Shown here one piece after another: positions 15,107 through 35,025 of a stretch of 39,398 bases of DNA. Position numbers and translations under genes: made by a program. The DNA is from a virus. Numbering within the stretch: position 1 is the first letter of the stretch; the number at the start of each line of letters is the position of its first letter. Under the pieces are notes generated by a model. It saw only the letters and a list, made by a program, of their open reading frames with translations. It had not been told where the DNA came from and searched no databases. The stretch lies in the IMG/VR virus record IMGVR_UViG_3300010167_000006, positions 1 to 39,398 of that record. One strand, written 5' to 3'.

Positions 15107-17119
15107 ATGGCGGTAATTACATGCCCGCGACAAGGCTGGACCAGCGGCAGGATTTACATGTCCCATGCGATGGTAAACGGCTCATGGACTTATATCTCGT
15201 ACGGCAGCCGGATCAATTTTGACATATCGCAGTTAAGCAACAAGGTTGTAAAACTGGACAGCCTGCGGCTGATAGGGCGGGCGACCGTAACATCCGTACT
15301 CGATAACAGTGTTTGGGGCCCGAGCCCCGCAAGGCCGACGGTAAACGTATTTTATAAAGACACGGGACGAAACACGTCTTTAATCACGAGTTATCAAAAG
15401 GGCACCATCGATATAAACGTCAATCTGACTTCGTTACTGCCGAAAGTTTCGTTTATACAAGACTCCATTCAAAGCATATGGAATGAGATAAATTTTAGCA
15501 ACCATCCGTTGGGGTGGAACGACAGCGTAACGTACCAAAACAATTTAGTTTTGGAGTTCACCGGCACCTTTGAAAATTACGCCCCGTTGGCGCCCACGTT
15601 TTTGTCGCCGACGGCTCCGCAAAGCCCCGTTTTATCAATCAGATTCTCCTGGATTTTTAACGACGTGCCCGGAAGCCCCTTCAAGCAGACCGGATCGCAA
15701 TTGGAATATACCGAATCCGGCAAGCAACCGGTCACGGTAAATATATCGGGCGCGACAAACCAATATACAATGCCGGCGAACACCTTTACCGCGGGTTCGG
15801 TATCCTTCCGCGTCCGCAGCAGCTGTAACGGCGTTTGGGGGCCGTGGTCCTCCACCGCTTCTTTTACCTTAACCGACGCGTCGCCTTTAAAACCGGTTTT
15901 GATTTATCCCCTGAACGTATCGGTAAACGGGGCGAATGGGGTTTTGCTGGAGTGGCGCTATAACAGCTCTTTCGATACGTTTCCGACGCGTTTCGATATA
16001 CGGTACAGGTTGGACGGCGGAAATTGGATAACTAAAACCAACAACAGCTCCGGAAGCACGCCCGCGAACAACTCCGTAATGACGGACCCGATCGTAACGC
16101 AAAACCGCGTCGAATGGCAGGTGCAGGCACGAGGCTTAACGGGCACCACAGGCCCGTGGTCTGACGTCGGGCAGTTTAACACCGTGGGCGTACCCGACGC
16201 GCCCGTTATAGTAAACGTCAGCAACTCAAACCTTCCGACAGTAACCTTTTCCGCGTCCAGCATAAGGAGCTGGGAACTCGAAGTTTTACAAAACAACAAC
16301 ATTTTTTACGCCACGGGCGTAAGAGCTTTTATAAATGAATTCACCCACAAGATAACCCGGATAATAGAAAACGGCAATTACCTCGCGCGTATGCGGGTAA
16401 CGAACGTGCACGGGTTAAATTCCGCGTGGGGATTTTTGGCTTTTAATATCGAGGCGTACGCGCCGGAGCCGTTAACGCTAAGTATCACATGCAATCAACG
16501 TCTTTTTATAAGGCTGCATTTTAATAACGCCGAAGAGAAGACGGTCTATGTTTACCGGTCCGTAACGGGGAAAAACGAATACCTGCGGATCGCAACATTA
16601 AGGCAAAGCGTGTTTGACGATTACACGGTAAGGCCCAAACAGCGCTATGAATACTTCGTCCGCGTTTTAAACGACGAGTATAATTTTGCGGACAGTAACA
16701 AAGTAACGGGATCTGTATCCTTTTCGGAAACGGTTATCGCCGAACAGGATAACCCGCATAAAATGATAAAATTCTTGTACCAACTGGACAACACGCCGAG
16801 TAAAAACGTGTCGTTCGACTTTAATAAAACGTTAACGAATTTTATTGGACGGGAAAGCCCCGTTTTACAAATCGGTAGTTTTTCGAGTAAGACCGCAAAT
16901 TTTGCATTTTTTTGTAAAGTTTCGGAATATGAAAAACTTGAAAATTTTCATAAAAACAAAAAAGTTTTAGTTTTGAGGGATCGGCGAGTTGGCGTTATCT
17001 ACGGGACGATAATCAGCCAAATAAGCGTTGCGATGAATACCAACCCAGCGTACAGGGACATGTGCTCGATATCCTTTTCATTCGTTCAGACGGATCATAT
17101 CGAGGAAGTGGAATTGTAA
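15107..17119 (+). CDS. Distal tail protein (Dit)-like with FN3/Ig-like repeat extensions
   Basis: First gene after the tape measure. Repeated W..W / GPWS motifs suggest FN3-like domains. Confidence 0.55.
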   Translation: MAVITCPRQGWTSGRIYMSHAMVNGSWTYISYGSRINFDISQLSNKVVKLDSLRLIGRATVTSVLDNSVWGPSPARPTVNVFYKDTGRNTSLITSYQKGTIDINVNLTSLLPKVSFIQDSIQSIWNEINFSNHPLGWNDSVTYQNNLVLEFTGTFENYAPLAPTFLSPTAPQSPVLSIRFSWIFNDVPGSPFKQTGSQLEYTESGKQPVTVNISGATNQYTMPANTFTAGSVSFRVRSSCNGVWGPWSSTASFTLTDASPLKPVLIYPLNVSVNGANGVLLEWRYNSSFDTFPTRFDIRYRLDGGNWITKTNNSSGSTPANNSVMTDPIVTQNRVEWQVQARGLTGTTGPWSDVGQFNTVGVPDAPVIVNVSNSNLPTVTFSASSIRSWELEVLQNNNIFYATGVRAFINEFTHKITRIIENGNYLARMRVTNVHGLNSAWGFLAFNIEAYAPEPLTLSITCNQRLFIRLHFNNAEEKTVYVYRSVTGKNEYLRIATLRQSVFDDYTVRPKQRYEYFVRVLNDEYNFADSNKVTGSVSFSETVIAEQDNPHKMIKFLYQLDNTPSKNVSFDFNKTLTNFIGRESPVLQIGSFSSKTANFAFFCKVSEYEKLENFHKNKKVLVLRDRRVGVIYGTIISQISVAMNTNPAYRDMCSISFSFVQTDHIEEVEL

Positions 17120-18234
17120 TGAATAACTTAAGCAATTATTCAAACAATCAAATAAAGGACGCTCTATTTTTTAAAGATGGAGTCAGAAATATATCGTTTA
17201 AGTATGACCTGATGGACCTTAACGATATAAAAATTGGCGAACTGGACGGGATAACCGGTAAAGTATCATTCGGCGAGTTTAGGACCATAAAAAGGTCAGC
17301 GACTTTTCAATTAAACGAGTATTTGCAAAAGGAAATTAACTATTTTACCGACCAGATACAGCCCTGGTTTATCCTTCATATGCCCGACGGCGGCGCGGTG
17401 GAGTGGCCGTTGGGGATTTTTATGTTGGAATCCCCAAACCGCATAACCAAGGACCATATATCCACAAGGGAGATAGGCGCATACGATAAAACGCTGGTGA
17501 TAGAAGAGGATAAGTTTATGAACCGTTACTTTATCGCATCGGGCGCTAACTATGTTGGGGCGATCGTAAGGATTTTGAATGAAACAGGTATAACCAAAGT
17601 ATCTATAACCAGCAGCAACTTTTCCCTTTCATCGGAAAGGGAATTTTCAATAGGTACGAAAAAAAAAGAAGCCATAAACGACTTACTACAGGAGATAAAC
17701 TACACGTCCATCGGAGTGGACGAAAACGGCTACTTTTTTTCCCGGCCATACATAGAACCGGCGTATAGACCGGTAACGCACGAATATAATGAAGAGAAAA
17801 ACAGCATATTCCACCCGGAATATACGGAAAACCTTGAAATTGCGGGCAGGGCGAACGTTTTTATCAGGATAGCCATGGATTTGACAAACGAACAGGAGTA
17901 CGTTTCGCAATTTATAAACGACGATATTTTATCTCCATTATCAACGGTCAACAGGGGTAGGCATATCGTGGATTTTGAGGAGGTGGACGGCATCGCAAAT
18001 CAAACAGTGCTCGACGATTTTGTAAAACGGATCGCAATCGAAAGCACGTCCGCGTACAGTCACCTAACCTTCGATACCGCGCTTATCCCGACGCACGGAA
18101 GCGCCGAAACCCTGTACTTAAATATTCCGTCCGTATTTGATACCCCGCAACTGTTTTCGGAAACGTCCTGGGATATGGACTTAACGTATGACGGTAAAAT
18201 GAAGCACGAAGCGCGAAAGGTCGTTTATCTGTGA
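17119..18234 (+). CDS. Tail-associated / baseplate hub (Tal-like) protein
   Basis: TAATG overlap start. Second gene after the tape measure. Confidence 0.5.
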   Translation: MNNLSNYSNNQIKDALFFKDGVRNISFKYDLMDLNDIKIGELDGITGKVSFGEFRTIKRSATFQLNEYLQKEINYFTDQIQPWFILHMPDGGAVEWPLGIFMLESPNRITKDHISTREIGAYDKTLVIEEDKFMNRYFIASGANYVGAIVRILNETGITKVSITSSNFSLSSEREFSIGTKKKEAINDLLQEINYTSIGVDENGYFFSRPYIEPAYRPVTHEYNEEKNSIFHPEYTENLEIAGRANVFIRIAMDLTNEQEYVSQFINDDILSPLSTVNRGRHIVDFEEVDGIANQTVLDDFVKRIAIESTSAYSHLTFDTALIPTHGSAETLYLNIPSVFDTPQLFSETSWDMDLTYDGKMKHEARKVVYL

Positions 18235-18467
18235 TACCCACAAAAAACCAGTTTTGGAAAGACCGTCTGTCAGGGAAAAGAAACAATAAAACGGTGAAGG
18301 TTGAATATGCTGAAGTTATGAGCATATCCAACGGAAACCCGACGATCAAGTTTATAGGAGAAGAATTGCCCAGCAGCAAAAAGTTTAAATTATTAAAAAG
18401 TTACACTCCGGCAATTGGCGAATGGGTACAGATAGTGGACGACGTAATACAGGGAGGATTGAAGTAA
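18231..18467 (+). CDS. Small tail-tip protein, unknown function
   Basis: Translationally coupled on both sides (overlaps at 18231 and 18467). Confidence 0.5.
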   Translation: MIPTKNQFWKDRLSGKRNNKTVKVEYAEVMSISNGNPTIKFIGEELPSSKKFKLLKSYTPAIGEWVQIVDDVIQGGLK

Positions 18468-20113
18468 TGATCGAAAAACTGATTGAACTGGATTTTGACG
18501 AACCGGCGCTGCAGAAAACCAATATTTTATTAAACCAAGCCAGCAGCGACAGTATAATTTTTCGGTTTCGGGTGTATAAAAACGCGACGGAAGTCGACTA
18601 TAACGACTTTATAAGGGCTGAGTTGGTTTTCCGGAAACAAAACGGGCAAAACGTTATAGACGACGGGAACATCGGCATATCCGGGATCACGTACGCGCTG
18701 CGGAATGAACTGCTCGATACGGTGGGAACCGTTTTAGGGTATGTCACGCTTATATCGATAACCGGCATAGAAGCGACGCTGCACTACAGTTTTTCGGTGG
18801 TATCCGATTTAATAGATTTTGAAAATGTAAGGAATTCCTATATAAAAAGGATTGAGGATTTTATTGAGGAAATCAAGAATGCGGCGTCGATGGAGGCAAT
18901 ACTACAGATAGTCGATGAAATAAACAGGATTGTAGCCGAAGCCCGCGAAATATTGGAAGGATTGCAATCGGACGCGTTTGTATCGGTAGAGCAGTTTAAC
19001 GAAAAAATAGGCGAATTAAACGAATTAATAAATAATATAAATGCCGAAAACATATCGGTTAACCCCGACGGAATGCTATTAATTAATAAAAATCCGCAAG
19101 ATGGTCTGTTAACCCCTATGATAAAAGAAAATTTTGTTGCCGTTACTGCGCAAATGGACCATATTGCGCAGGAGAATCTGTTAATAAATGGCAGTTTGCA
19201 AGTATGGCAACGCGGCGATACGTTTACAAATCCAAATAGACTGTATACCGCCGACCGGATGCTATGTAACGGCACGGGGATCGTGACGAAGCACGCGAAC
19301 GGAATGCAAATAACGGGTAATATTAATCTTCGTTACATCATGGAGGCGGCCGATTTTAAAGCCATCTCCGGGAAAACCGTTACATTGTCATACTCAAAGG
19401 ATGGCGTGACACAACCGCCGTTGACATATAATGCGGCGACTGCGAGGGTAGTTGATATAAATCTTACAGCGGGAATATATAATTGGTTTAAACTCGAAAA
19501 TGGTGATAAAAATACTCCTTATAAATCAAGGTTAATATCAAATGAAATAGCATTATGTCAACGGTATTACATAAGATATGGTGATAGATCCGGCAATTAT
19601 TTTTTTTCTTTATGTCAAATGTCAAGTAATATATATGCAGTAGCAATATTTCCATATTTTAGTCAATTAAGTACAATACCAACTTTACAAAGTTCAAATT
19701 TTGTATCAAACAATTTTTCACTTTTAATAGGAGCAACATTAATAGAAATTTCTGGTATTGCAAATTTACAACCAAACGATTCGTTCGCGCATGTTACATT
19801 TACGGCATCTGGTTTAACTATAGGTCAAGCAGGACGCATATTTTTTCAAAATAACGCCTGGTTAGCTTATGACGCGGAAGTACAGGATGTCGGGGTTTAT
19901 AACATTCATTACGTCAGATTGGACGAATCCGGCAGCGTCGCTTACGGTTTTTCGGACGCCTTCGAAGAGTCGCAACCGGGCGATATACTTATAACTGATA
20001 GAGGCGGTCGCCATTTTGAGATTGACGGCGAAATAAACCCGACGATGTCGGATTATGCCGGCGCGTATTTATACAAACACGAAAACGGACGGGTCGTGAA
20101 AAATAAGGATTAA
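18467..20113 (+). CDS. Tail fibre / receptor-binding protein: constant N-terminal part plus variable C-terminal cassette A
   Basis: GGAGG RBS and TAATG start at 18467 (ORF track start 18422 is less likely). Coiled-coil N-terminus. AT-rich C-terminal part. Contains IR-L at 19143-19170. Confidence 0.7.
   Translation: MIEKLIELDFDEPALQKTNILLNQASSDSIIFRFRVYKNATEVDYNDFIRAELVFRKQNGQNVIDDGNIGISGITYALRNELLDTVGTVLGYVTLISITGIEATLHYSFSVVSDLIDFENVRNSYIKRIEDFIEEIKNAASMEAILQIVDEINRIVAEAREILEGLQSDAFVSVEQFNEKIGELNELINNINAENISVNPDGMLLINKNPQDGLLTPMIKENFVAVTAQMDHIAQENLLINGSLQVWQRGDTFTNPNRLYTADRMLCNGTGIVTKHANGMQITGNINLRYIMEAADFKAISGKTVTLSYSKDGVTQPPLTYNAATARVVDINLTAGIYNWFKLENGDKNTPYKSRLISNEIALCQRYYIRYGDRSGNYFFSLCQMSSNIYAVAIFPYFSQLSTIPTLQSSNFVSNNFSLLIGATLIEISGIANLQPNDSFAHVTFTASGLTIGQAGRIFFQNNAWLAYDAEVQDVGVYNIHYVRLDESGSVAYGFSDAFEESQPGDILITDRGGRHFEIDGEINPTMSDYAGAYLYKHENGRVVKNKD
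19143..19170. repeat. Inverted repeat IR-L (candidate inversion crossover site) inside the tail fibre gene
   Basis: TTACTGCGCAAATGGACCATATTGCGCA. 27 of 28 nt match the reverse complement of 20762-20789. Confidence 0.9.
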
Positions 20114-20778
20114 ACATCCGTATCAACGATATTTTCAAATGTAGTTTCATCACCCCAAACTTTTAATATAATTTGTTGTATATCAATTTTATCTTTTAAT
20201 ATATCTTGTAGTTGCAAACGGCCAAAATCGGAATTCATAACAACAGAACGCCATTTGTTATTTGAATTTGTTTTTAAAATTTCTACGCAATTAATGGTTA
20301 AATTTTCAATTATTATTTCATCTTTTTTAGTTGTATTTTTTATATCAGGTAGACTACGTAAATAAACACCCGTACCGTATAAAACGCAAACGGCGGGCAT
20401 GCCTGTTATATCTACAAAAGCAGAGAGTGATGGTGAACTACGAAAAACTATTTGATTTGAGGTAAGGATAGAACCATTTATTGCAAAGACACTGTTAAAT
20501 GGTGTTGCGCGAGTTACGGTAATTGAATTTGCGTTACTATTGTACCAATCCCCATTCCAAACGTCATATGGTAAACTGTCAACCTGCATCCTGCCAGTTG
20601 GCGCGGTATTTATACTTTGTGTTTGTATCAAAAAGAATATTTGTACTAAATTTCCTATGGAAACGTATGCGCCAAATTGCGTAGTATAAGTTAAACTGCC
20701 GCGCACATCTGCTCCATGTAATGCAGGTGTCCAACTACCTACTTCATATGGCAATTGATTGTGCGCAATTTGGTCCAT
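20110..20778 (-). CDS. Alternative tail-fibre C-terminal cassette B (promoterless, expressed only after inversion)
   Basis: Convergent with the tail fibre gene. The N-terminus MDQIAHNQL mirrors QMDHIAQENL of the expressed gene. IR-R covers its start. AT-rich. Confidence 0.65.
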   Translation of the reverse strand: MDQIAHNQLPYEVGSWTPALHGADVRGSLTYTTQFGAYVSIGNLVQIFFLIQTQSINTAPTGRMQVDSLPYDVWNGDWYNSNANSITVTRATPFNSVFAINGSILTSNQIVFRSSPSLSAFVDITGMPAVCVLYGTGVYLRSLPDIKNTTKKDEIIIENLTINCVEILKTNSNNKWRSVVMNSDFGRLQLQDILKDKIDIQQIILKVWGDETTFENIVDTDV

Positions 20779-20789
20779 TTGCGCAGTAA
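20762..20789. repeat. Inverted repeat IR-R, partner of 19143-19170
   Basis: tgcgcaatttggtccatttgcgcagtaa, whose reverse complement is TTACTGCGCAAATGGACCAAATTGCGCA. Confidence 0.9.
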
Positions 20790-20848
20790 AAAAAGTTACT
20801 TTACGGCCGTTGTTATAATCCTCCCAAATAACCTTGGGAGGTTTTTAT

Positions 20849-21895
20849 ATGCCAATCGACCACGAAACCACCATCGCCCGTATAGCCGCGGCCCTGATCC
20901 GCCGCGGGGTAGACGACCCGCAACTTGTATCCGAGATACGCGACATCGTCCGGGACGGCTTTCGCTCAGAATTCGCCTTCCCTTCCGACCAAATTTTTTC
21001 AACCGAAGCCTCCGAAACCGCGTTTCCATTTATATCGTCCGACATTTGGCAAAAATCCGAAATGTTTCTCATGGCGAAACGTATCGACGGTCTGTCCGCC
21101 CTTACCCTCAAAAATTACAGACGCACGCTCCTGGCATTTTCCGCGGATCTCAACCGGTCAGTCAGCGTCGCGGACGTCACCGCGAACGACATCCGGTTTT
21201 TCGTCGCCCGCCTGGGCGAGACCCGCCGCGTCATGGACTCGACGCAGCAGTCGTACACGTACGTCCTCAAATCTTTTTTTAAATGGATGCACGTCGAGGA
21301 GATCATCCCGAAAAACCCGTGCAGCAAAATCAAGTCCCTCAAGATCGACTGGCGGCGGCGAAAGAAGGCCCTCGGCGCGGAGGACCTCGAACGGCTGCGC
21401 GGCGCGTGCGATACGCCGCGTAACAAGGCGATCGTGGAGTTCCTCTACTCCACCGGCTGCCGGCTGAGCGAGGCGGTCAACGCGGACGTCGACACGCTGG
21501 ACCTGCACTCGCGGTCTCTCCGGGTCGTAGGCAAGGGCGATAAGGAACGCACGGTCTATTTCAGCGCCCGCGCCAAGGTCTGCATCGAAAACTACCTGCG
21601 CGTCCGCAAAGGCGAAGGCGGGCACCTGTTCGCAAGCAGCCGCGCCCCGTTCGGCAGGCTGTGCGCCCGAACCGTGCAGACCGAGATCAAAACCGTCGGC
21701 GAGGCCGCGGGGATAAAACAGGCAATGCACCCTCACCTGCTCCGCCATACCTTCGCGACCCACGCGCTCAAAGCCGGCATGGACATCACCGTAATACAAA
21801 AACTGCTCGGCCACGCGAGGATCGGCACGACGCAGATATACGCGGACGTCGACCAGTCCATGGTCGCCCGCGAGTACGCAAAACTTAATTTTTAA
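20849..21895 (+). CDS. Tyrosine recombinase (XerC/D-like), candidate tail-fibre invertase
   Basis: HPHLLRHTFATHAL...LLGHARIGTTQIYADV catalytic motifs, and TGCRLSEA (Arg I). Starts 60 nt from IR-R. GGGAGG RBS. Confidence 0.75.
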   Translation: MPIDHETTIARIAAALIRRGVDDPQLVSEIRDIVRDGFRSEFAFPSDQIFSTEASETAFPFISSDIWQKSEMFLMAKRIDGLSALTLKNYRRTLLAFSADLNRSVSVADVTANDIRFFVARLGETRRVMDSTQQSYTYVLKSFFKWMHVEEIIPKNPCSKIKSLKIDWRRRKKALGAEDLERLRGACDTPRNKAIVEFLYSTGCRLSEAVNADVDTLDLHSRSLRVVGKGDKERTVYFSARAKVCIENYLRVRKGEGGHLFASSRAPFGRLCARTVQTEIKTVGEAAGIKQAMHPHLLRHTFATHALKAGMDITVIQKLLGHARIGTTQIYADVDQSMVAREYAKLNF

Positions 21896-21954
21896 GCAGC
21901 CCAACCGGGCACGCCCGGTCTCGCCCGGCGCGGGGATATATAAAGGAGGATTTT

Positions 21955-22299
21955 ATGAGATTCGTCAGAGGCTACAAGTCCGTCGCGCTGTTGCAAATAC
22001 TCATGTGCGCGGGCTTTTTCGTCAACCCCGGGACCGACGTTTACGGCACGGTTTTCGGCGTCGCCAATTTTTTCGGCGCGGGCCTGATCACCGTCGGGTC
22101 GGCCCTGGCGTACTTTAAGCCGAAAAAATTGATACTGCGGGCACTCGTCGCGACGATGACGGCGTTGATCGTCTTTAATTCCTGCTGGTTTATCCTCGCG
22201 GGCGTCTTTTTTACGACGGGTTTCCCCCTCATCGGCTACGACCTGCTTTTTGTGGTGACCAACCTGCATTTTTTGGGATGGGGGTTGGATGTCGTATGA
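21955..22299 (+). CDS. Membrane protein with about 4 TM segments (holin-like or exclusion protein)
   Basis: Hydrophobic segments throughout; RBS aaggagga; first gene of the lysis region. Confidence 0.5.
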   Translation: MRFVRGYKSVALLQILMCAGFFVNPGTDVYGTVFGVANFFGAGLITVGSALAYFKPKKLILRALVATMTALIVFNSCWFILAGVFFTTGFPLIGYDLLFVVTNLHFLGWGLDVV

Positions 22300-22583
22300 C
22301 GGGCGGAATCAGTATAGAGTATATAATCAGTATGCTCGGCGGCGGCCTGGGCATTTTTATTATAAATTTAATCAACGACTGGCGCAAAGCCAAACGCGGC
22401 GACACGCAGGATGTGATCGGCGCGTGGCAGGAGATCGCAAACAGGGAGGCCGTCCGGTCGGAGGTCAGGGAGACGCGCGAAAGGGAGCTCACGGCAGAGC
22501 TGTATTCGGCAAAAGAATATATCGGTCAACTACTGACATTTATTACCGAAGCCGGGTTGAAAGCGCCGAAACGGTCGAAATAA
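22296..22583 (+). CDS. Single-pass membrane protein of the lysis cassette
   Basis: ATGA overlap start. N-terminal TM (ISMLGGGLGIFIINLI) followed by a charged helical tail. Confidence 0.5.
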   Translation: MTGGISIEYIISMLGGGLGIFIINLINDWRKAKRGDTQDVIGAWQEIANREAVRSEVRETRERELTAELYSAKEYIGQLLTFITEAGLKAPKRSK

Positions 22584-22586
22584 GGA

Positions 22587-23408
22587 TTGCGGAAAGGGTG
22601 TTTTTGCGTGAAAAACGACGCTTTTATAAAAAAAGTACTGGATATTTTTGCGAATTATAAGACGGTATACATGTGGGGATGCTTCGGGCAGCCGGTCACG
22701 GACGCGCTTGTCGCCGAAAAAACGAGGCAGTACCCCACGTTTTATACGCAGGGCATACAGGACAAGCTGCGGTCGTTAGTCGGTAAAGGATACTTTGGCT
22801 TCGACTGCGTAAACCTGATAAAAGCCGTCGCGTGGGGCTGGTCCGGGGACGCAACGAAAGCCAACGGCGGCGCGGCGTATTCGACGAACGGGGTGCAGGA
22901 CGTCAATGCGGACATGATGATCAAGCTGTGCTTTAAGCTCACCGACGATTTTAAGGTGATCGTGCCGGGTTGCGCGGTGTGGATGCAGGGCCATATCGGC
23001 GTTTACATCGGCGACGGCAAGGTGGTCGAGGCGACGCCGAGCTGGGACAACCGGGTGCAGGTCACCTCGCTCGGAAACATCGGCAGCGTAGCCGGACTGC
23101 ACTCGCGGAAATGGACGATGCACGGCAGGCTGCCGTTTGTGGAGTACGAGCAAAAACCGGGGGAAACCGGGCAAGCGTCCACGCTACCGCCCGGCGGACA
23201 GGCGTCCGGGCAATCGCCCGAGGTGACGAAACCTGATATACTGCCGTCGGACGGATACCCCGCGGACTCTGATCAGCCCCATTGGGCTGAAGGGTTTTGG
23301 AAATCTCTTAACGACGCCGGGATCCGGATACACGAAAAACGGTTCGAGGACCCGATCAGGCGGGGTGAATTGTTCGCGCTTTTGGATCAAGTGGTAAATA
23401 AAAAATAA
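22587..23408 (+). CDS. Endolysin: NlpC/P60-like cysteine peptidase with a C-terminal SLH-like wall-binding segment
   Basis: FGFDCVNLIK (Cys) and QGHIGVYIGDGKVVEA (His) motifs. C-terminal HWAEGFWKSLNDAGI...RGELFALL resembles an S-layer homology motif. Start uncertain (TTG 22587 or GTG 22608). Confidence 0.65.
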   Translation: MRKGCFCVKNDAFIKKVLDIFANYKTVYMWGCFGQPVTDALVAEKTRQYPTFYTQGIQDKLRSLVGKGYFGFDCVNLIKAVAWGWSGDATKANGGAAYSTNGVQDVNADMMIKLCFKLTDDFKVIVPGCAVWMQGHIGVYIGDGKVVEATPSWDNRVQVTSLGNIGSVAGLHSRKWTMHGRLPFVEYEQKPGETGQASTLPPGGQASGQSPEVTKPDILPSDGYPADSDQPHWAEGFWKSLNDAGIRIHEKRFEDPIRRGELFALLDQVVNKK

Positions 23409-23421
23409 GGAGGCGATTTTT

Positions 23422-23622
23422 TTGGAAAAGATAAATTGGAAAGCGAAACTGAGCAGCAGGAAATTTTGGACCGCGCTGGCAGCCTGGGCGACGGCGCTGT
23501 TGTCGGCGTTTAATTTCGCGGACAACGAGATCGCGAGGGCGGCGCTGATCATTTCCGGCATCGGGGCGCTTACGGTTTATATGCTGGCCGAGGCGACGGC
23601 GGACCGGAGGAAAAACGGGTGA
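23422..23622 (+). CDS. Holin (phi LC3-like family)
   Basis: (M)EKINWKAKLSSRKFWTALAAW... N-terminus typical of that holin family; two TM segments; TTG start. Confidence 0.6.
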   Translation: MEKINWKAKLSSRKFWTALAAWATALLSAFNFADNEIARAALIISGIGALTVYMLAEATADRRKNG

Positions 23623-25738: not shown

Positions 25739-26905
25739 TTATCTATCGAACAATGTGTCACCGTTTTGTCCCCTTGGTTTGTTTTTAATGGTAAAATAAT
25801 CATTGATTTGTTCTGCGGCCCGGGTAAAAGATTCGTCAGAAATCGCCCGGTATCCGTCCGTCACGTCATAGGATTTGTGACCCATAAAAAATTTTTGCTC
25901 CCGTTCGTGGACCCCGGCGGCGTGGATGTCCGTCGCGTATGTGTGACGGAGGTAATGCGGCGTGATCTCGTCGGCAAACGGCGACGTTTCTATTAAAATT
26001 TTATTCCTGTACATTTTAGCGCCGGCGCTTATGTGGCATTGCCGTTTAAAAGAGTCCCACCACTCGCGGACAGTTGTGCCCGTCGCCCTCGACCCGTCCA
26101 CTTTCGTAAAAACATGATCCTCCGGATTTTTACCCAGACATTGTTTTTCCAAAAATGGTATCAATATATCTGGTATCGGCGTTTCCCTTACGCCCGCCTC
26201 CGACTTGGGTTGTTTCAGCGAACCTTGATTTGATCTGAATCTAACTGCTTTTTGTACCGATAGCCGTTTTTTCGCAAAATCGACATTTTCAACCTTCAAT
26301 GCCACGCATTCGCCGCGGCGAAGCCCGCACAAGATCATCGTCAGGACATACGCGCCGTGTTTATGGACCTGCGCGACGTTAAAAACGGTTTTGCATTCAA
26401 AATCCGTTAACGGTCTGCGGGGTTCCTCATCTAAATTTTCCGGCAAGTTCAATTTTTTCGCTGGGTTCATTTCTATGATTCCCTCCATTTCGGCGCAATC
26501 GAAAATCTGTCGGATCGCGATCCTTATTTTTATGACGGTGCCCTTTGCCTTTTTGGATTCATTTAATAGTTTCACCAGATGGGACGCCCGAACGTCTTTT
26601 ATCTGCATGTGGCCGATAACGGGTACGATGTCCAGCCTTACCTTCGCGGCAAAATGGGATTTTAAATCGTTGGAGGCGTTGGTTTTATACGTTACGAGCC
26701 ATCGATCGCACCATTCCGCGACCGTAATATTATCCGTCGAAACTCCTTTTTTATACAGACGCTTCGCTTCATCCACTTTTTTTAAAAACAAGTTATAGTT
26801 TTTATCGCGTACCGTGATCCGGTCCTGTTTACCGTTTAGCTTTTTTCCGACGACCCAGGTTTCGCGATAATATCCGTCTTTATTTCGCGTATACTTTGTT
26901 TTCAT
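25739..26905 (-). CDS. int: Phage integrase (tyrosine recombinase with N-terminal SAM-like/core-binding domain)
   Basis: 388 aa. GLRRGE, HYLRHTYATD and GHKSYDVTDGY catalytic motifs. Next to the tRNA-derived attP. Confidence 0.85.
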   Translation of the reverse strand: MKTKYTRNKDGYYRETWVVGKKLNGKQDRITVRDKNYNLFLKKVDEAKRLYKKGVSTDNITVAEWCDRWLVTYKTNASNDLKSHFAAKVRLDIVPVIGHMQIKDVRASHLVKLLNESKKAKGTVIKIRIAIRQIFDCAEMEGIIEMNPAKKLNLPENLDEEPRRPLTDFECKTVFNVAQVHKHGAYVLTMILCGLRRGECVALKVENVDFAKKRLSVQKAVRFRSNQGSLKQPKSEAGVRETPIPDILIPFLEKQCLGKNPEDHVFTKVDGSRATGTTVREWWDSFKRQCHISAGAKMYRNKILIETSPFADEITPHYLRHTYATDIHAAGVHEREQKFFMGHKSYDVTDGYRAISDESFTRAAEQINDYFTIKNKPRGQNGDTLFDR

Positions 26906-27014: not shown

Positions 27015-27149
27015 ATGGAAAATTCAAACGATAATGATGAATTGAAAATAGATGATATATACAGTATATTTTCTACGCTTTCATACATGGATAAGATTGC
27101 TATTTTGCGTTATTTGCTCGATCTCTTAAAAATTGCGCAAATACCGTAA
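27015..27149 (+). CDS. Possible 44-aa ORF antisense to the 3' end of the repressor gene
   Basis: TTGACT-17 nt-TATCAT promoter-like boxes (about 26967-26995), RBS gaggtga, ATG 27015. The peptide resembles the repressor C-terminal motif. Confidence 0.3.
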   Translation: MENSNDNDELKIDDIYSIFSTLSYMDKIAILRYLLDLLKIAQIP

Positions 27150-27498
27150 GCTTGTCCTTATCTTCCGAGGATAAAATTCGGAAAATTTTTTTAAGTTCGA
27201 CTTCGTTGATATTAATATCAAATCCATCCACTACGGACCCATCAGGTCCTTTTGTTTTTTCAATTGCATTTTCTATAGTTTCGATCGAATTAATGTAAGG
27301 CGTTGGATCGTCTATGCGCCCAAGTAAAAAATCCAAATTAACGTTAAAAAAATCCGCCATAAAGTTTAACGCTTCGCTGTCCGGGTCATGAAGTCCTCTT
27401 TCCCAGTTGGACAAAGTAGCCTGTGTTATATTCAATCTTTTGGCAAAATCTATTTGCCTTAATCCCTTTTTTTTCCTTAATAAACCAATGCGATTCAT
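27100..27498 (-). CDS. CI-like repressor (XRE-family HTH)
   Basis: LRQIDFAKRLNITQATLSNWERG HTH. Divergent from the cro-like gene across an operator-rich region. Confidence 0.8.
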   Translation of the reverse strand: MNRIGLLRKKKGLRQIDFAKRLNITQATLSNWERGLHDPDSEALNFMADFFNVNLDFLLGRIDDPTPYINSIETIENAIEKTKGPDGSVVDGFDININEVELKKIFRILSSEDKDKLTVFAQFLRDRANNAK

Positions 27499-33696: not shown

Positions 33697-35025
33697 GTGT
33701 TTATCTCTTTTAAAGAGCTTGAGCGCGAACAGGCGCAAGGCCTCGACTATAAAATAGCCTCCGCGGTTTCCGCGATACAAAAAGCGTACGGCGTCAGCAA
33801 ACACCGCGCCGCGATAGCGTTTTCCGGCGGCAAGGACTCGACCGTACTGTGGCACTTGATACGCACTAATTTCCCGGAGCAAGCTGCGAAAACTTACGTT
33901 ATCTATGGCAATACTGGCGTCGAGTATCCGGAGTGCCTCCGTTTCGCCCGCGCTCTCGGTAAAAACTGGGGACCGGGACTGTTTCACGAGGCGCACCCGG
34001 AAAAAACCGACACCTTCGGCCTTAAATACAAGGCGCAGAAAGCCGTATTGGATCATGTCGCGGAAACAGGACGACTCGGCGAGATACTCAAGCCCGACGG
34101 AAAGCTCAAAAGCACGTCCGCGCTCGAAAACGTCTGCCCGGCGGATATGATGGAAAAATTCGCAAGCGAAAAACTCGTCTGGCCGGTAGGCACGCGCAAA
34201 ACTTATTGGTGGTGCGTAGATCAATACGGCTGGCCCCTGCTCGGCAAGGCGGCGTCGATGCTCAAAGCCCGGCGGATAAATATTGATTGTTTTTTAAAAT
34301 ATTCGAATAGCGCGAGCGAAAAAGGGAAACTTTTGGCATATTACAAACTGCTCAAGCGTGTGAAATTTTCCCAGGCATGCTGCGATATACTCAAAAAGGA
34401 GCCGTCGGAGAAGCTGCAGGCCGAGTTAGACGTCGACGTGGTTTTCAAGGGCCTAATGGCCTCGGAGAGCAGATCGCGGCAGACGAACTTCGTCACCCGA
34501 GGGTATCTGTTTGAGTCGACCCGTGAACATTTACAGGGCGACAGTTTTTGGCATTGCAACCCGATGTCTATTTGGACGGATGACGATGTATGGGCGTACA
34601 TCCGCCGGTTCGGCGTGCCGTACTCGACGCTGTACGACATGGGTTACACCGACGCCGGCGGCGTCTGCCGAAAAATCAAGCGCAACGGCTGTATGGGCTG
34701 CGGTACGGATTTAATGTACCCAAATAATCATATGTCCATGCTCCGCCGGACTCATCCGAAACAATGGGACGCCTTCATGCGGCTTGGGATGGCCGCGGAG
34801 ATACAAAATTTACAGATTGAAAAACGTAACGGGCAGATGTCTATTTTCGACTTCGCGGCCGCGAATCCGGACCACGCGGATGAGGTTATCGGGCGGATCA
34901 TAGACGAGAGACCCTGCGTTTTCGACCGTATCGACAGATTAGTAATTGATGATGAGATGTGGCCCGGCGAAACGCCGGAGTATGACCCGGAGGTGGGGGA
35001 GGAAAGGATGATAAAACTCACATGA
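33697..35025 (+). CDS. cysH: PAPS reductase-family / CysH-like PP-loop enzyme (442 aa)
   Basis: AFSGGKDSTVLWHL PP-loop, YGNTGVEYPE and MASESRSRQ motifs. C-terminal Cys cluster CRKIKRNGCMGCG. GTG start. ATGA coupling to the next gene. Confidence 0.75.
   Translation: MFISFKELEREQAQGLDYKIASAVSAIQKAYGVSKHRAAIAFSGGKDSTVLWHLIRTNFPEQAAKTYVIYGNTGVEYPECLRFARALGKNWGPGLFHEAHPEKTDTFGLKYKAQKAVLDHVAETGRLGEILKPDGKLKSTSALENVCPADMMEKFASEKLVWPVGTRKTYWWCVDQYGWPLLGKAASMLKARRINIDCFLKYSNSASEKGKLLAYYKLLKRVKFSQACCDILKKEPSEKLQAELDVDVVFKGLMASESRSRQTNFVTRGYLFESTREHLQGDSFWHCNPMSIWTDDDVWAYIRRFGVPYSTLYDMGYTDAGGVCRKIKRNGCMGCGTDLMYPNNHMSMLRRTHPKQWDAFMRLGMAAEIQNLQIEKRNGQMSIFDFAAANPDHADEVIGRIIDERPCVFDRIDRLVIDDEMWPGETPEYDPEVGEERMIKLT

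Follow-up and report, generated by a model that had tools for sequence, protein, structure and literature searches.

Can a temperate phage exchange the receptor-binding tip of its tail fibre by inverting part of its own genome with a tyrosine recombinase? The question is raised by a locus in the IMG/VR virus record IMGVR_UViG_3300010167_000006, which was analysed over its whole stretch of 39,398 nucleotides (nt; hereafter the window). Two inverted copies of a 28-bp sequence bound a segment (19143-20789) at the end of the structural genes; the segment holds two convergent C-terminal tail-fibre cassettes, and a gene for a Xer-like tyrosine recombinase follows it. A preliminary description, made from the letters alone, had taken the locus for a Mu-G-like host-range switch driven by a tyrosine recombinase. 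Our analysis makes it probable that the feature is a working or recently working tail-fibre inversion switch. By site-specific inversion, the segment itself probably swaps the distal, receptor-binding part of a temperate siphophage's tail fibre.

The tail-fibre gene is the last structural gene. It occupies 18467-20113 on the plus strand and encodes 548 amino acids (aa) from an ATG that is called as the start in both public assemblies. Its constant N-terminal part (18467-19142, plus strand) consists of a BppU_N baseplate-attachment domain identified by Pfam (residues 4-137, E 2.1e-6) and a helical stalk, and comprises 228 residues ahead of the junction or 233-234 if the junction is counted. Among 5.8 billion protein clusters, the sole homologue of the N-terminus of the constant part was a protein (P0002) that carries the same N-terminus on an unrelated short C-terminus, in a phage without the recombinase. 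Since the C-terminus of this protein differs, the boundary of the constant part is apparently a natural point of module exchange. Past the junction, the currently expressed C-terminal module, cassette A (19171-20113, plus strand), adds 314 residues and matches phrog_4492 'tail fiber protein' (E 1.4e-20, residues 229-463 of the 548-aa protein). The silent alternative, cassette B, lies at 20110-20761 on the minus strand. Its open reading frame (ORF) as called extends over 20110-20778 on that strand, has 222 codons and matches phrog_28473 'tail fiber' (E 3.8e-5). No homology was detected between cassettes A and B past the eight-residue junction. Their reading frames converge on a common palindromic TTAA at 20110-20113, in which the plus strand stops at TAA in 20111-20113 and the minus strand at the triplet complementary to 20110-20112. 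Both cassettes contain AT-rich stretches, with a GC content of 0.26 at 19500-19800 and 0.265 at 20100-20300, whereas the tail genes nearby have about 0.4-0.5 and the gene for the recombinase has 0.53-0.65.

The two inverted repeats (IRs) are 28 nt long and complementary at 27 of 28 positions. IR-L (19143-19170, plus strand) lies within the expressed tail-fibre gene and is translated as TAQMDHIA, and IR-R (20762-20789, minus strand) encodes TAQMDQIA on the minus strand. Relative to the repeat, both are read in the same frame in the tail gene and in the cassette B ORF. The window contains precisely two occurrences of the pattern, where 100 dinucleotide shuffles give an expectation of 0.00, and no third or degenerate site beyond chance was found in the window, where these two are the only full sites. 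Inside the repeat, both copies contain an imperfect dyad, TGCGCAAAT-GGACCA-(T/A)ATTGCGCA, in which two 9-bp arms flank an asymmetric 6-bp centre, GGACCA; in IR-L this core spans 19147-19170 and reads TGCGCAAAT-GGACCA-TATTGCGCA. Such a 9-6-9 layout resembles the minimal core site of Xer-type tyrosine recombinases. Sequence identity between the copies ends sharply at the edges of the dyad-symmetric site. The only mismatch (T or A at 19162) falls in the cassette-proximal arm and outside the 6-bp centre, so the H or Q codon would move along with its cassette. IR-R includes the ATG that ORF finders use as the start of cassette B; no Shine-Dalgarno sequence was found upstream of this start, and no promoter match between the ATG and the recombinase gene. 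As a separate observation, the recombinase half-site TGCGCAA(A/T)T occurs six times in the window against 1.4 expected, a count reached by 3 of 100 shuffles. A 12-bp palindrome, AATTGCGCAAAT (27131-27142), contains two overlapping half-sites and is situated close to where the gene for the CI-like repressor ends (3′); this palindrome and the half-site excess are probably due to chance.

In silico inversion of 19143-20789 produced one uninterrupted ORF of 451 aa, composed of the 228 constant residues, the junction and cassette B. Cassette B is clearly coding and maintained, because its 222 codons are open at 34.5% GC while none of 20000 shuffles was free of an in-frame stop. Residues 5-140 have 1614 remote homologues, typically at the extreme C-terminus of longer proteins (for instance residues 1165-1279 of 1295), and a profile of this domain matched residues 401-533 of the 538-residue tailspike PDB 6f7d (E 1.9e-9). 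The conserved motifs of the domain, which reads YEEGTWTP...G.TTAG..TYT.Q.G.Y.KIGN.V...APTGNL.I.GLPF, are retained in cassette B. Pfam has no family for cassette B or for 47 homologues of its domain. In many homologues of the domain (P0128-P0270, alignment A2), a short leader of variable sequence precedes it in an ORF that stands alone and has 140-200 aa; some of these ORFs may be silent inversion cassettes miscalled as genes.

The candidate invertase is encoded at 20849-21895 on the plus strand. Its ATG at 20849 is preceded by GGGAGG and lies 59 nt past IR-R. Matches in Pfam, NCBIfam and the PDB identify it as a Xer-like, armless tyrosine recombinase. Besides Phage_integrase (PF00589, 2.8e-39) it contains the SAM-like N-domains SAM_4 and SAM_1; no arm-binding domain was matched in Pfam, and the first approximately 70 residues have no assignment. 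An alignment of 30 homologues showed the six catalytic residues R205, K229, H296, R299, H322 and Y331 to be invariant; they make up the R-K-H-R-H/W pentad and the nucleophilic tyrosine typical of tyrosine recombinases. The only NCBIfam cut-off passed was that of NF040815 (XerA-type / integron integrase; 240.2 bits versus a cut-off of 220), which assigns the protein to a sequence family and not to a function. The protein stayed below the equivalog cut-offs for XerC (TIGR02224, 206 versus 335 bits) and XerD (TIGR02225, 194 versus 330 bits), and with the FimB/E-type models NF007370 and NF007371 it scored 38.5 and 33.9 bits, where about 221 would be required. The best PDB match was XerD (1a0p). 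No serine-recombinase family was matched among the annotated genes, although the window was not exhaustively screened for one. The lysogeny integrase of the phage is encoded separately, at 25739-26905, which marks the enzyme encoded from 20849 as an additional, dedicated recombinase.

This architecture agrees with the preliminary description in every structural respect: the 28-bp repeats matching at 27 of 28 positions, IR-L in the expressed fibre gene with its peptide, IR-R at the start of a reverse ORF without a promoter match, in the same frame, the fusion of a constant part of about 234 aa to cassette B, the palindromic stop shared by both cassettes, their AT-rich stretches and the adjacent Xer-like tyrosine recombinase were all recovered by pattern counts, translation, in silico inversion and family searches.

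From these elements the following mechanism can be proposed. The last structural gene would be composed of the BppU-type anchor and stalk (228 aa), an eight-residue linker encoded by the site, and cassette A, with cassette B tail-to-tail on the other strand and headed by an inverted copy of the site. The Xer-like recombinase would bind the 9-bp arms (TGCGCAAAT / TGCGCAAT[A/T]) of each site, pair both sites and exchange strands within the asymmetric centre GGACCA. Since the two centres are opposite in orientation, the outcome of recombination would be an inversion of 19143-20789. The constant part would then be fused in frame to cassette B, giving a protein of 451 instead of 548 aa, and cassette A would be silenced. 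A population of lysogens and the virions released from it would carry a mixture of two receptor specificities. We infer from the sequence features that this copy inverts, where the crossover lies and that A and B recognize different receptors; an effect on host range would follow from the tail-fibre nature of the cassettes.

The nearest homologues of the recombinase share only 53-54% identity, which is why the clade as a whole was examined for invertase behaviour. A single-protein search of IMG/VR with the recombinase gave no match, and relatives surfaced only with an alignment as the query, which retrieved 80 loci from IMG/VR and another 80 from genomes. Scored as at least 17 matched bases with the right arm directly upstream of the recombinase gene, an inverted repeat abuts the gene in 36 of the 49 loci that have at least 44% identity and enough upstream sequence. 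The same was true of 4 of 32 more distant homologues and of 1 of 26 in a downstream control. The left arm in the 36 loci is located further upstream, mostly by 0.7-1.5 kb and by up to approximately 4 kb, within a plus-strand gene that had a tail-fibre, minor-tail or receptor-binding PHROG match in five of seven tested cases; the right arm stands at the head of a minus-strand ORF. Site families of the relatives include GACCGCTATGGCGGC, GGTTGCTATGGCGGC, AATAAGGCGRA and GGGCGCCTACGGCAAAGCG, all unlike the site in the window. The loci L008 and L009 (52% identity) have reverse-strand cassettes, recombinase and candidate lysis genes in the order of the window. The closest genomic homologues are found in Oscillospiraceae, namely Oscillibacter, Faecousia, Bittarella, Angelakisella and Anaerotruncus.

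Natural inversions are evident among these relatives. All-against-all blastn yielded 42 pairs of loci with collinear flanks around an inverted middle, and both orientations were seen in relatives whose recombinases are 44-50% identical to the one in the window. In the clearest case, L042 and L044 are 96-99% identical in their flanks, and a 1176-nt segment that ends in the sites is inverted between them at 98.5% identity. The C-termini are thereby exchanged (421 versus 394 aa for the expressed protein, 177 versus 144 aa for the silent ORF) with the recombinase in place. Furthermore, 14 contigs end within 300 nt upstream of the recombinase gene versus 3 within 300 nt downstream. Such a pile-up is expected if both orientations coexist in a sample, as mixed orientations break assemblies.

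Several relatives (L004, L033/L034 and L097) have more than two sites or cassettes. In L004 (571-5902) a recombinase with 50% identity, P0014, is situated in a prophage region where TTCACCTTATTTGCC occurs at least five times, in either orientation, across approximately 5 kb that include holin and amidase genes. An identical recombinase of the P0014 type is accompanied by different upstream content in L006 as compared with L004 and L005. The locus in L004, L005 and L006 has the appearance of a shufflon with multiple sites, though what it shuffles is not obviously tail fibre. L033, L034, L097 and L051 have at least three sites (GGAAAATAAGGCGAAC or GTCGAATAAGGCGGA), and several nested inversions distinguish L033 from L034, two phages that are 98-99% identical. 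The latter relatives are true shufflons inside the same recombinase clade. L097 belongs to the cultured isolate Bittarella massiliensis GD6 (NZ_LN908977.1), which would be well suited as an experimental model.

A common group of homologues, P0045 and about 40 similar proteins of 583-606 aa (L172-L174), called for example at 603 aa, have approximately 280 extra N-terminal residues ahead of the recombinase domains. Their genes are preceded by three ORFs (925, 193 and 294 aa) with no confident family match and followed by genes with Pfam domains of cellular enzymes (Lactamase_B/flavodoxin, glycosyltransferase). The 603-aa homologues may be genuine fusions, or their ORFs may have been called too long because of the high GC content of the DNA.

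A number of findings weigh against a functional switch in this particular phage. Two contigs contain the exact recombinase; both are in the orientation of the window, and as they are 100% identical they are possibly not independent. The inverted orientation of this phage was not encountered in the collections searched. When compared with the 5.8 billion protein clusters, the predicted 451-aa chimera retrieved only the native protein and the one N-terminal homologue. The ORF expected from cassette A in the silent state had no record when looked up exactly, and the 28-bp site had no match in IMG/VR and JGI metagenome contigs. The native left junction in the window reads ...GTTGCCGTTACTGCGCAAATGGACCATATTGCGCAGGAGAATCTG and the predicted inverted one ...GTTGCCGTTACTGCGCAAATGGACCAAATTGCGCACAATCAATTGCCATATG; on the right side the corresponding sequences are CATATGGCAATTGATTGTGCGCAATTTGGTCCATTTGCGCAGTAAAAAAAG... 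(native) and CAGATTCTCCTGCGCAATATGGTCCATTTGCGCAGTAAAAAAAG... (predicted). Given the distance of the nearest homologue and the different sites used by the relatives, activity of the recombinase on the window's site is an extrapolation. In addition, the cultured Terrisporobacter phage TPELB_ph1 (L170, PP197244.1) and Clostridium phage phiCp-D of C. perfringens (L171, MW478291.1) encode an 'integrase' with 38-41% identity, whose gene is placed after the last tail gene and before the holin. A further, larger integrase is encoded elsewhere in TPELB_ph1. The two phages were rejected as examples of a switch because no convincing inverted repeat was present, and it follows that a position between tail and lysis genes is by itself not diagnostic of an invertase role.

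The single recorded orientation is also what a fossil would display, that is, a locus that descends from a working system but is locked in the cassette-A state because its recombinase or site is inactive, with cassette B decaying. The mismatch between the arms and the difference in composition between the AT-rich cassettes and the recombinase gene would fit this idea as well. However, all six catalytic residues are intact, the mismatch spares the central 6 bp, and cassette B is undecayed, with a fully open ORF and its domain motifs kept. Moreover, a consensus assembly gives the majority orientation only, so that one state is expected even from an active switch. A copy that no longer flips thus appears rather unlikely. 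Alternatively, the recombinase might have another task. It could serve in Xer-type dimer resolution of a plasmid-like prophage or in a second kind of integration; the repeat and cassette B would in that case be what remains after tail-fibre modules were exchanged horizontally, through homologous recombination within a conserved linker. The best score against a XerA-type model, the 38-41% homologues without a convincing repeat between tail and lysis genes, the mosaic GC content of the phage and the 13 of 49 closer homologues without an abutting repeat, one of which (L007, identical to L096) is in a non-phage context, are compatible with this proposal. Yet the scar of such an exchange should be a direct repeat or none at all, and not an inverted copy that stands exactly in frame where an intact, convergent ORF begins, with identity that stops sharply at the edges of the dyad. 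The layout is, furthermore, common to 36 of the 49 closest homologues, among which inversions were observed. We consider this explanation very unlikely.

It might also be asked whether cassette B is an independent gene with its start codon at 20778 (ATG, minus strand) that encodes a separate 222-aa tail protein, the 28 bp reflecting a conserved peptide motif. Gene callers do report a stand-alone ORF of 222 or 198 aa, and many homologues of the domain are short (140-200 aa). Against this, the ATG lacks a Shine-Dalgarno sequence, no promoter-like match occurs up to the recombinase gene, and a start giving 198 aa would remove the conserved GxWTP motif. The 27 of 28 identity at the nucleotide level includes third codon positions and goes beyond what peptide conservation needs. 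A separate gene is hardly credible in light of these features, and an inversion switch that is or recently was working accounts for the locus best.

If the switch operates, the region in front of the recombinase gene may set its expression. An extended -10-like element, TGTTATAAT (20811-20819, plus strand), was read from the sequence and is a possible promoter of the recombinase gene's own; a two-hexamer promoter scan did not flag it. Directly downstream, a terminator scan detected an 8-bp G+C-rich hairpin (20820-20841, plus strand) followed by five T, which extend to 20846. Its RNA fold has a free energy of −19.2 kcal/mol (z = −2.9), and the 3′ arm coincides with the Shine-Dalgarno sequence GGGAGG of the recombinase. 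The hairpin looks like a terminator. A transcript from the putative promoter would start inside the left arm of the hairpin, so that the ribosome-binding site stays accessible; transcripts that read through from the tail operon would be terminated or masked at the hairpin. Such a device may keep expression of the invertase low and independent of late transcription. IR-R is positioned where a -35 element would be, and autoregulation is conceivable.

Switching of receptor-binding-protein (RBP) cassettes by a tyrosine invertase has been described for the Rin shufflon of prophages from Bifidobacterium breve and B. longum (Mavrich et al. 2018, PMC6109161), which was later found in clade-1 prophages of Eggerthella lenta (PMC8778435). 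Inversion by Rin was seen in reads (PMC6109161, PMC8778435), and a systematic survey also lists gene-altering inversions of phage tail genes (PMC9881135). By its published description, Rin resembles the system in the window in several ways. The neighbour of the RBP gene encodes an armless, Xer-like tyrosine recombinase, which is not the lysogeny integrase; a constant N-terminal part is combined with mutually dissimilar C-terminal cassettes, in frame in the window; crossover sites are found within the gene and where each cassette begins; and the carrier is a temperate siphophage of a Gram-positive gut host. Rin differs in being a true shufflon with three to five cassettes and several short sites (the 11-bp TTCCCTAACCC or the 8-bp TTCCGTAT), whereas the window has exactly two 28-bp sites with a 9-6-9 dyad and two convergent cassettes, and only one orientation on record. 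The hosts of Rin phages are Actinobacteria, while the closest genomic relatives of the window's recombinase belong to the Oscillospiraceae. The preliminary description did not include Rin in its background, and the novelty that it implied was therefore overstated; its proposal of a Mu-G-like, tyrosine-driven switch is otherwise favoured by the confirmed structural predictions and by relatives in both orientations.

The Mu G segment with Gin, the P1 C segment with Cin, Pin of e14 and Min of p15B follow the same logic, in which inversion attaches one of two (or more) C-terminal modules to a constant tail-fibre N-terminus; the two modules converge between inverted repeats, and the recombinase is encoded just outside. 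These enzymes belong to the serine recombinases and depend on Fis and an enhancer, in contrast to the tyrosine recombinase in the window; the hosts differ, and the window's segment contains no gene for tail-fibre assembly (U/U'). In the R64 shufflon, as in the window, a tyrosine recombinase (Rci) switches the C-terminus of an adhesin (PilV) at sites within the coding region, but it acts on a plasmid conjugative pilus with seven sfx sites and four segments rather than on a phage tail; no Rci-type family was among the NCBIfam matches of the window's recombinase. The best family match was to the Xer/dif system, especially the archaeal XerA-type with a single recombinase, and dif likewise consists of two inverted arms around a 6-bp centre. 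Xer enzymes resolve dimers at one site per replicon. The window has two inverted sites in coding regions 1.6 kb apart, for which inversion is the expected product. Tsr/PsrA of Bacteroides and the enterobacterial FimB/FimE are also tyrosine recombinases dedicated to inversion-based phase variation, though they mostly flip promoters rather than coding cassettes. Full-text searches with partial coverage of the literature found no description of the clostridial clade.

In the remainder of the phage genome, which amounts to 39.4 kb with annotated terminase, portal, capsid and tape-measure genes, the tape-measure set is followed by distal tail genes, the holin/endolysin region and the lysogeny integrase beside a CI-like repressor. 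The integrase (25739-26905, minus strand) matches Phage_integrase, Phage_int_M and SAM_3 in Pfam, and the adjoining repressor gene (27100-27498) was recognized by HTH_3. A megablast of 17000-23500 revealed no nucleotide relative among INPHARED phages. The host probably belongs to the gut Clostridia. The GC content forms a sharp mosaic, with 26% in the cassette interiors, 53-65% in the recombinase and lysis genes (58-65% over 21100-21900), about 58-60% in the head genes and about 35-37% in the immunity region. The step between 19500-20400 and 20850-23400 points to phages of lower GC content as the source of the receptor-binding modules. Proteins of the PAPS-reductase type often belong to phage DNA-modification modules, and a PAPS-reductase domain is present in a 442-aa protein of the early region (33697-35025).

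In summary, a tail-fibre switch operated by a tyrosine invertase is already known from Rin, and the window adds a two-cassette member with a dif-like 9-6-9 core in a coding linker. With the concept established by Mu Gin and Rin, its value lies in the extension to another phylum and in a defined site, not in a new principle. More tentatively, the window may represent a large unnamed clade of XerA-like enzymes that are dedicated tail-fibre invertases of phages and prophages from Oscillospiraceae and other gut Clostridia. This clade would comprise at least 36 loci with about five co-varying site families and natural inverted variants, and would have been recruited independently of the actinobacterial Rin. 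The dif-like core site would double as the linker between stalk and receptor-binding domain, and the hairpin, as terminator and mask of the ribosome-binding site, may keep the enzyme low and uncoupled from late transcription. We regard this wider picture as plausible though far from assured.

The clade recurs, includes natural inverted variants and has a core site that is both defined and translated; it merits a short follow-up. A compact Xer-like invertase with a defined, translatable site of 24-28 bp is a candidate tool for in-frame domain swapping. In metagenomes, such loci break assemblies and yield truncated 'hypothetical' ORF calls, and recognition of the pattern improves annotation and the inference of host range. 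The Oscillospiraceae are a group of gut bacteria from which hardly any phages have been cultured. With an active switch, one prophage in such a host would release virions with two receptor-binding tips and thereby hedge its bets on host range.

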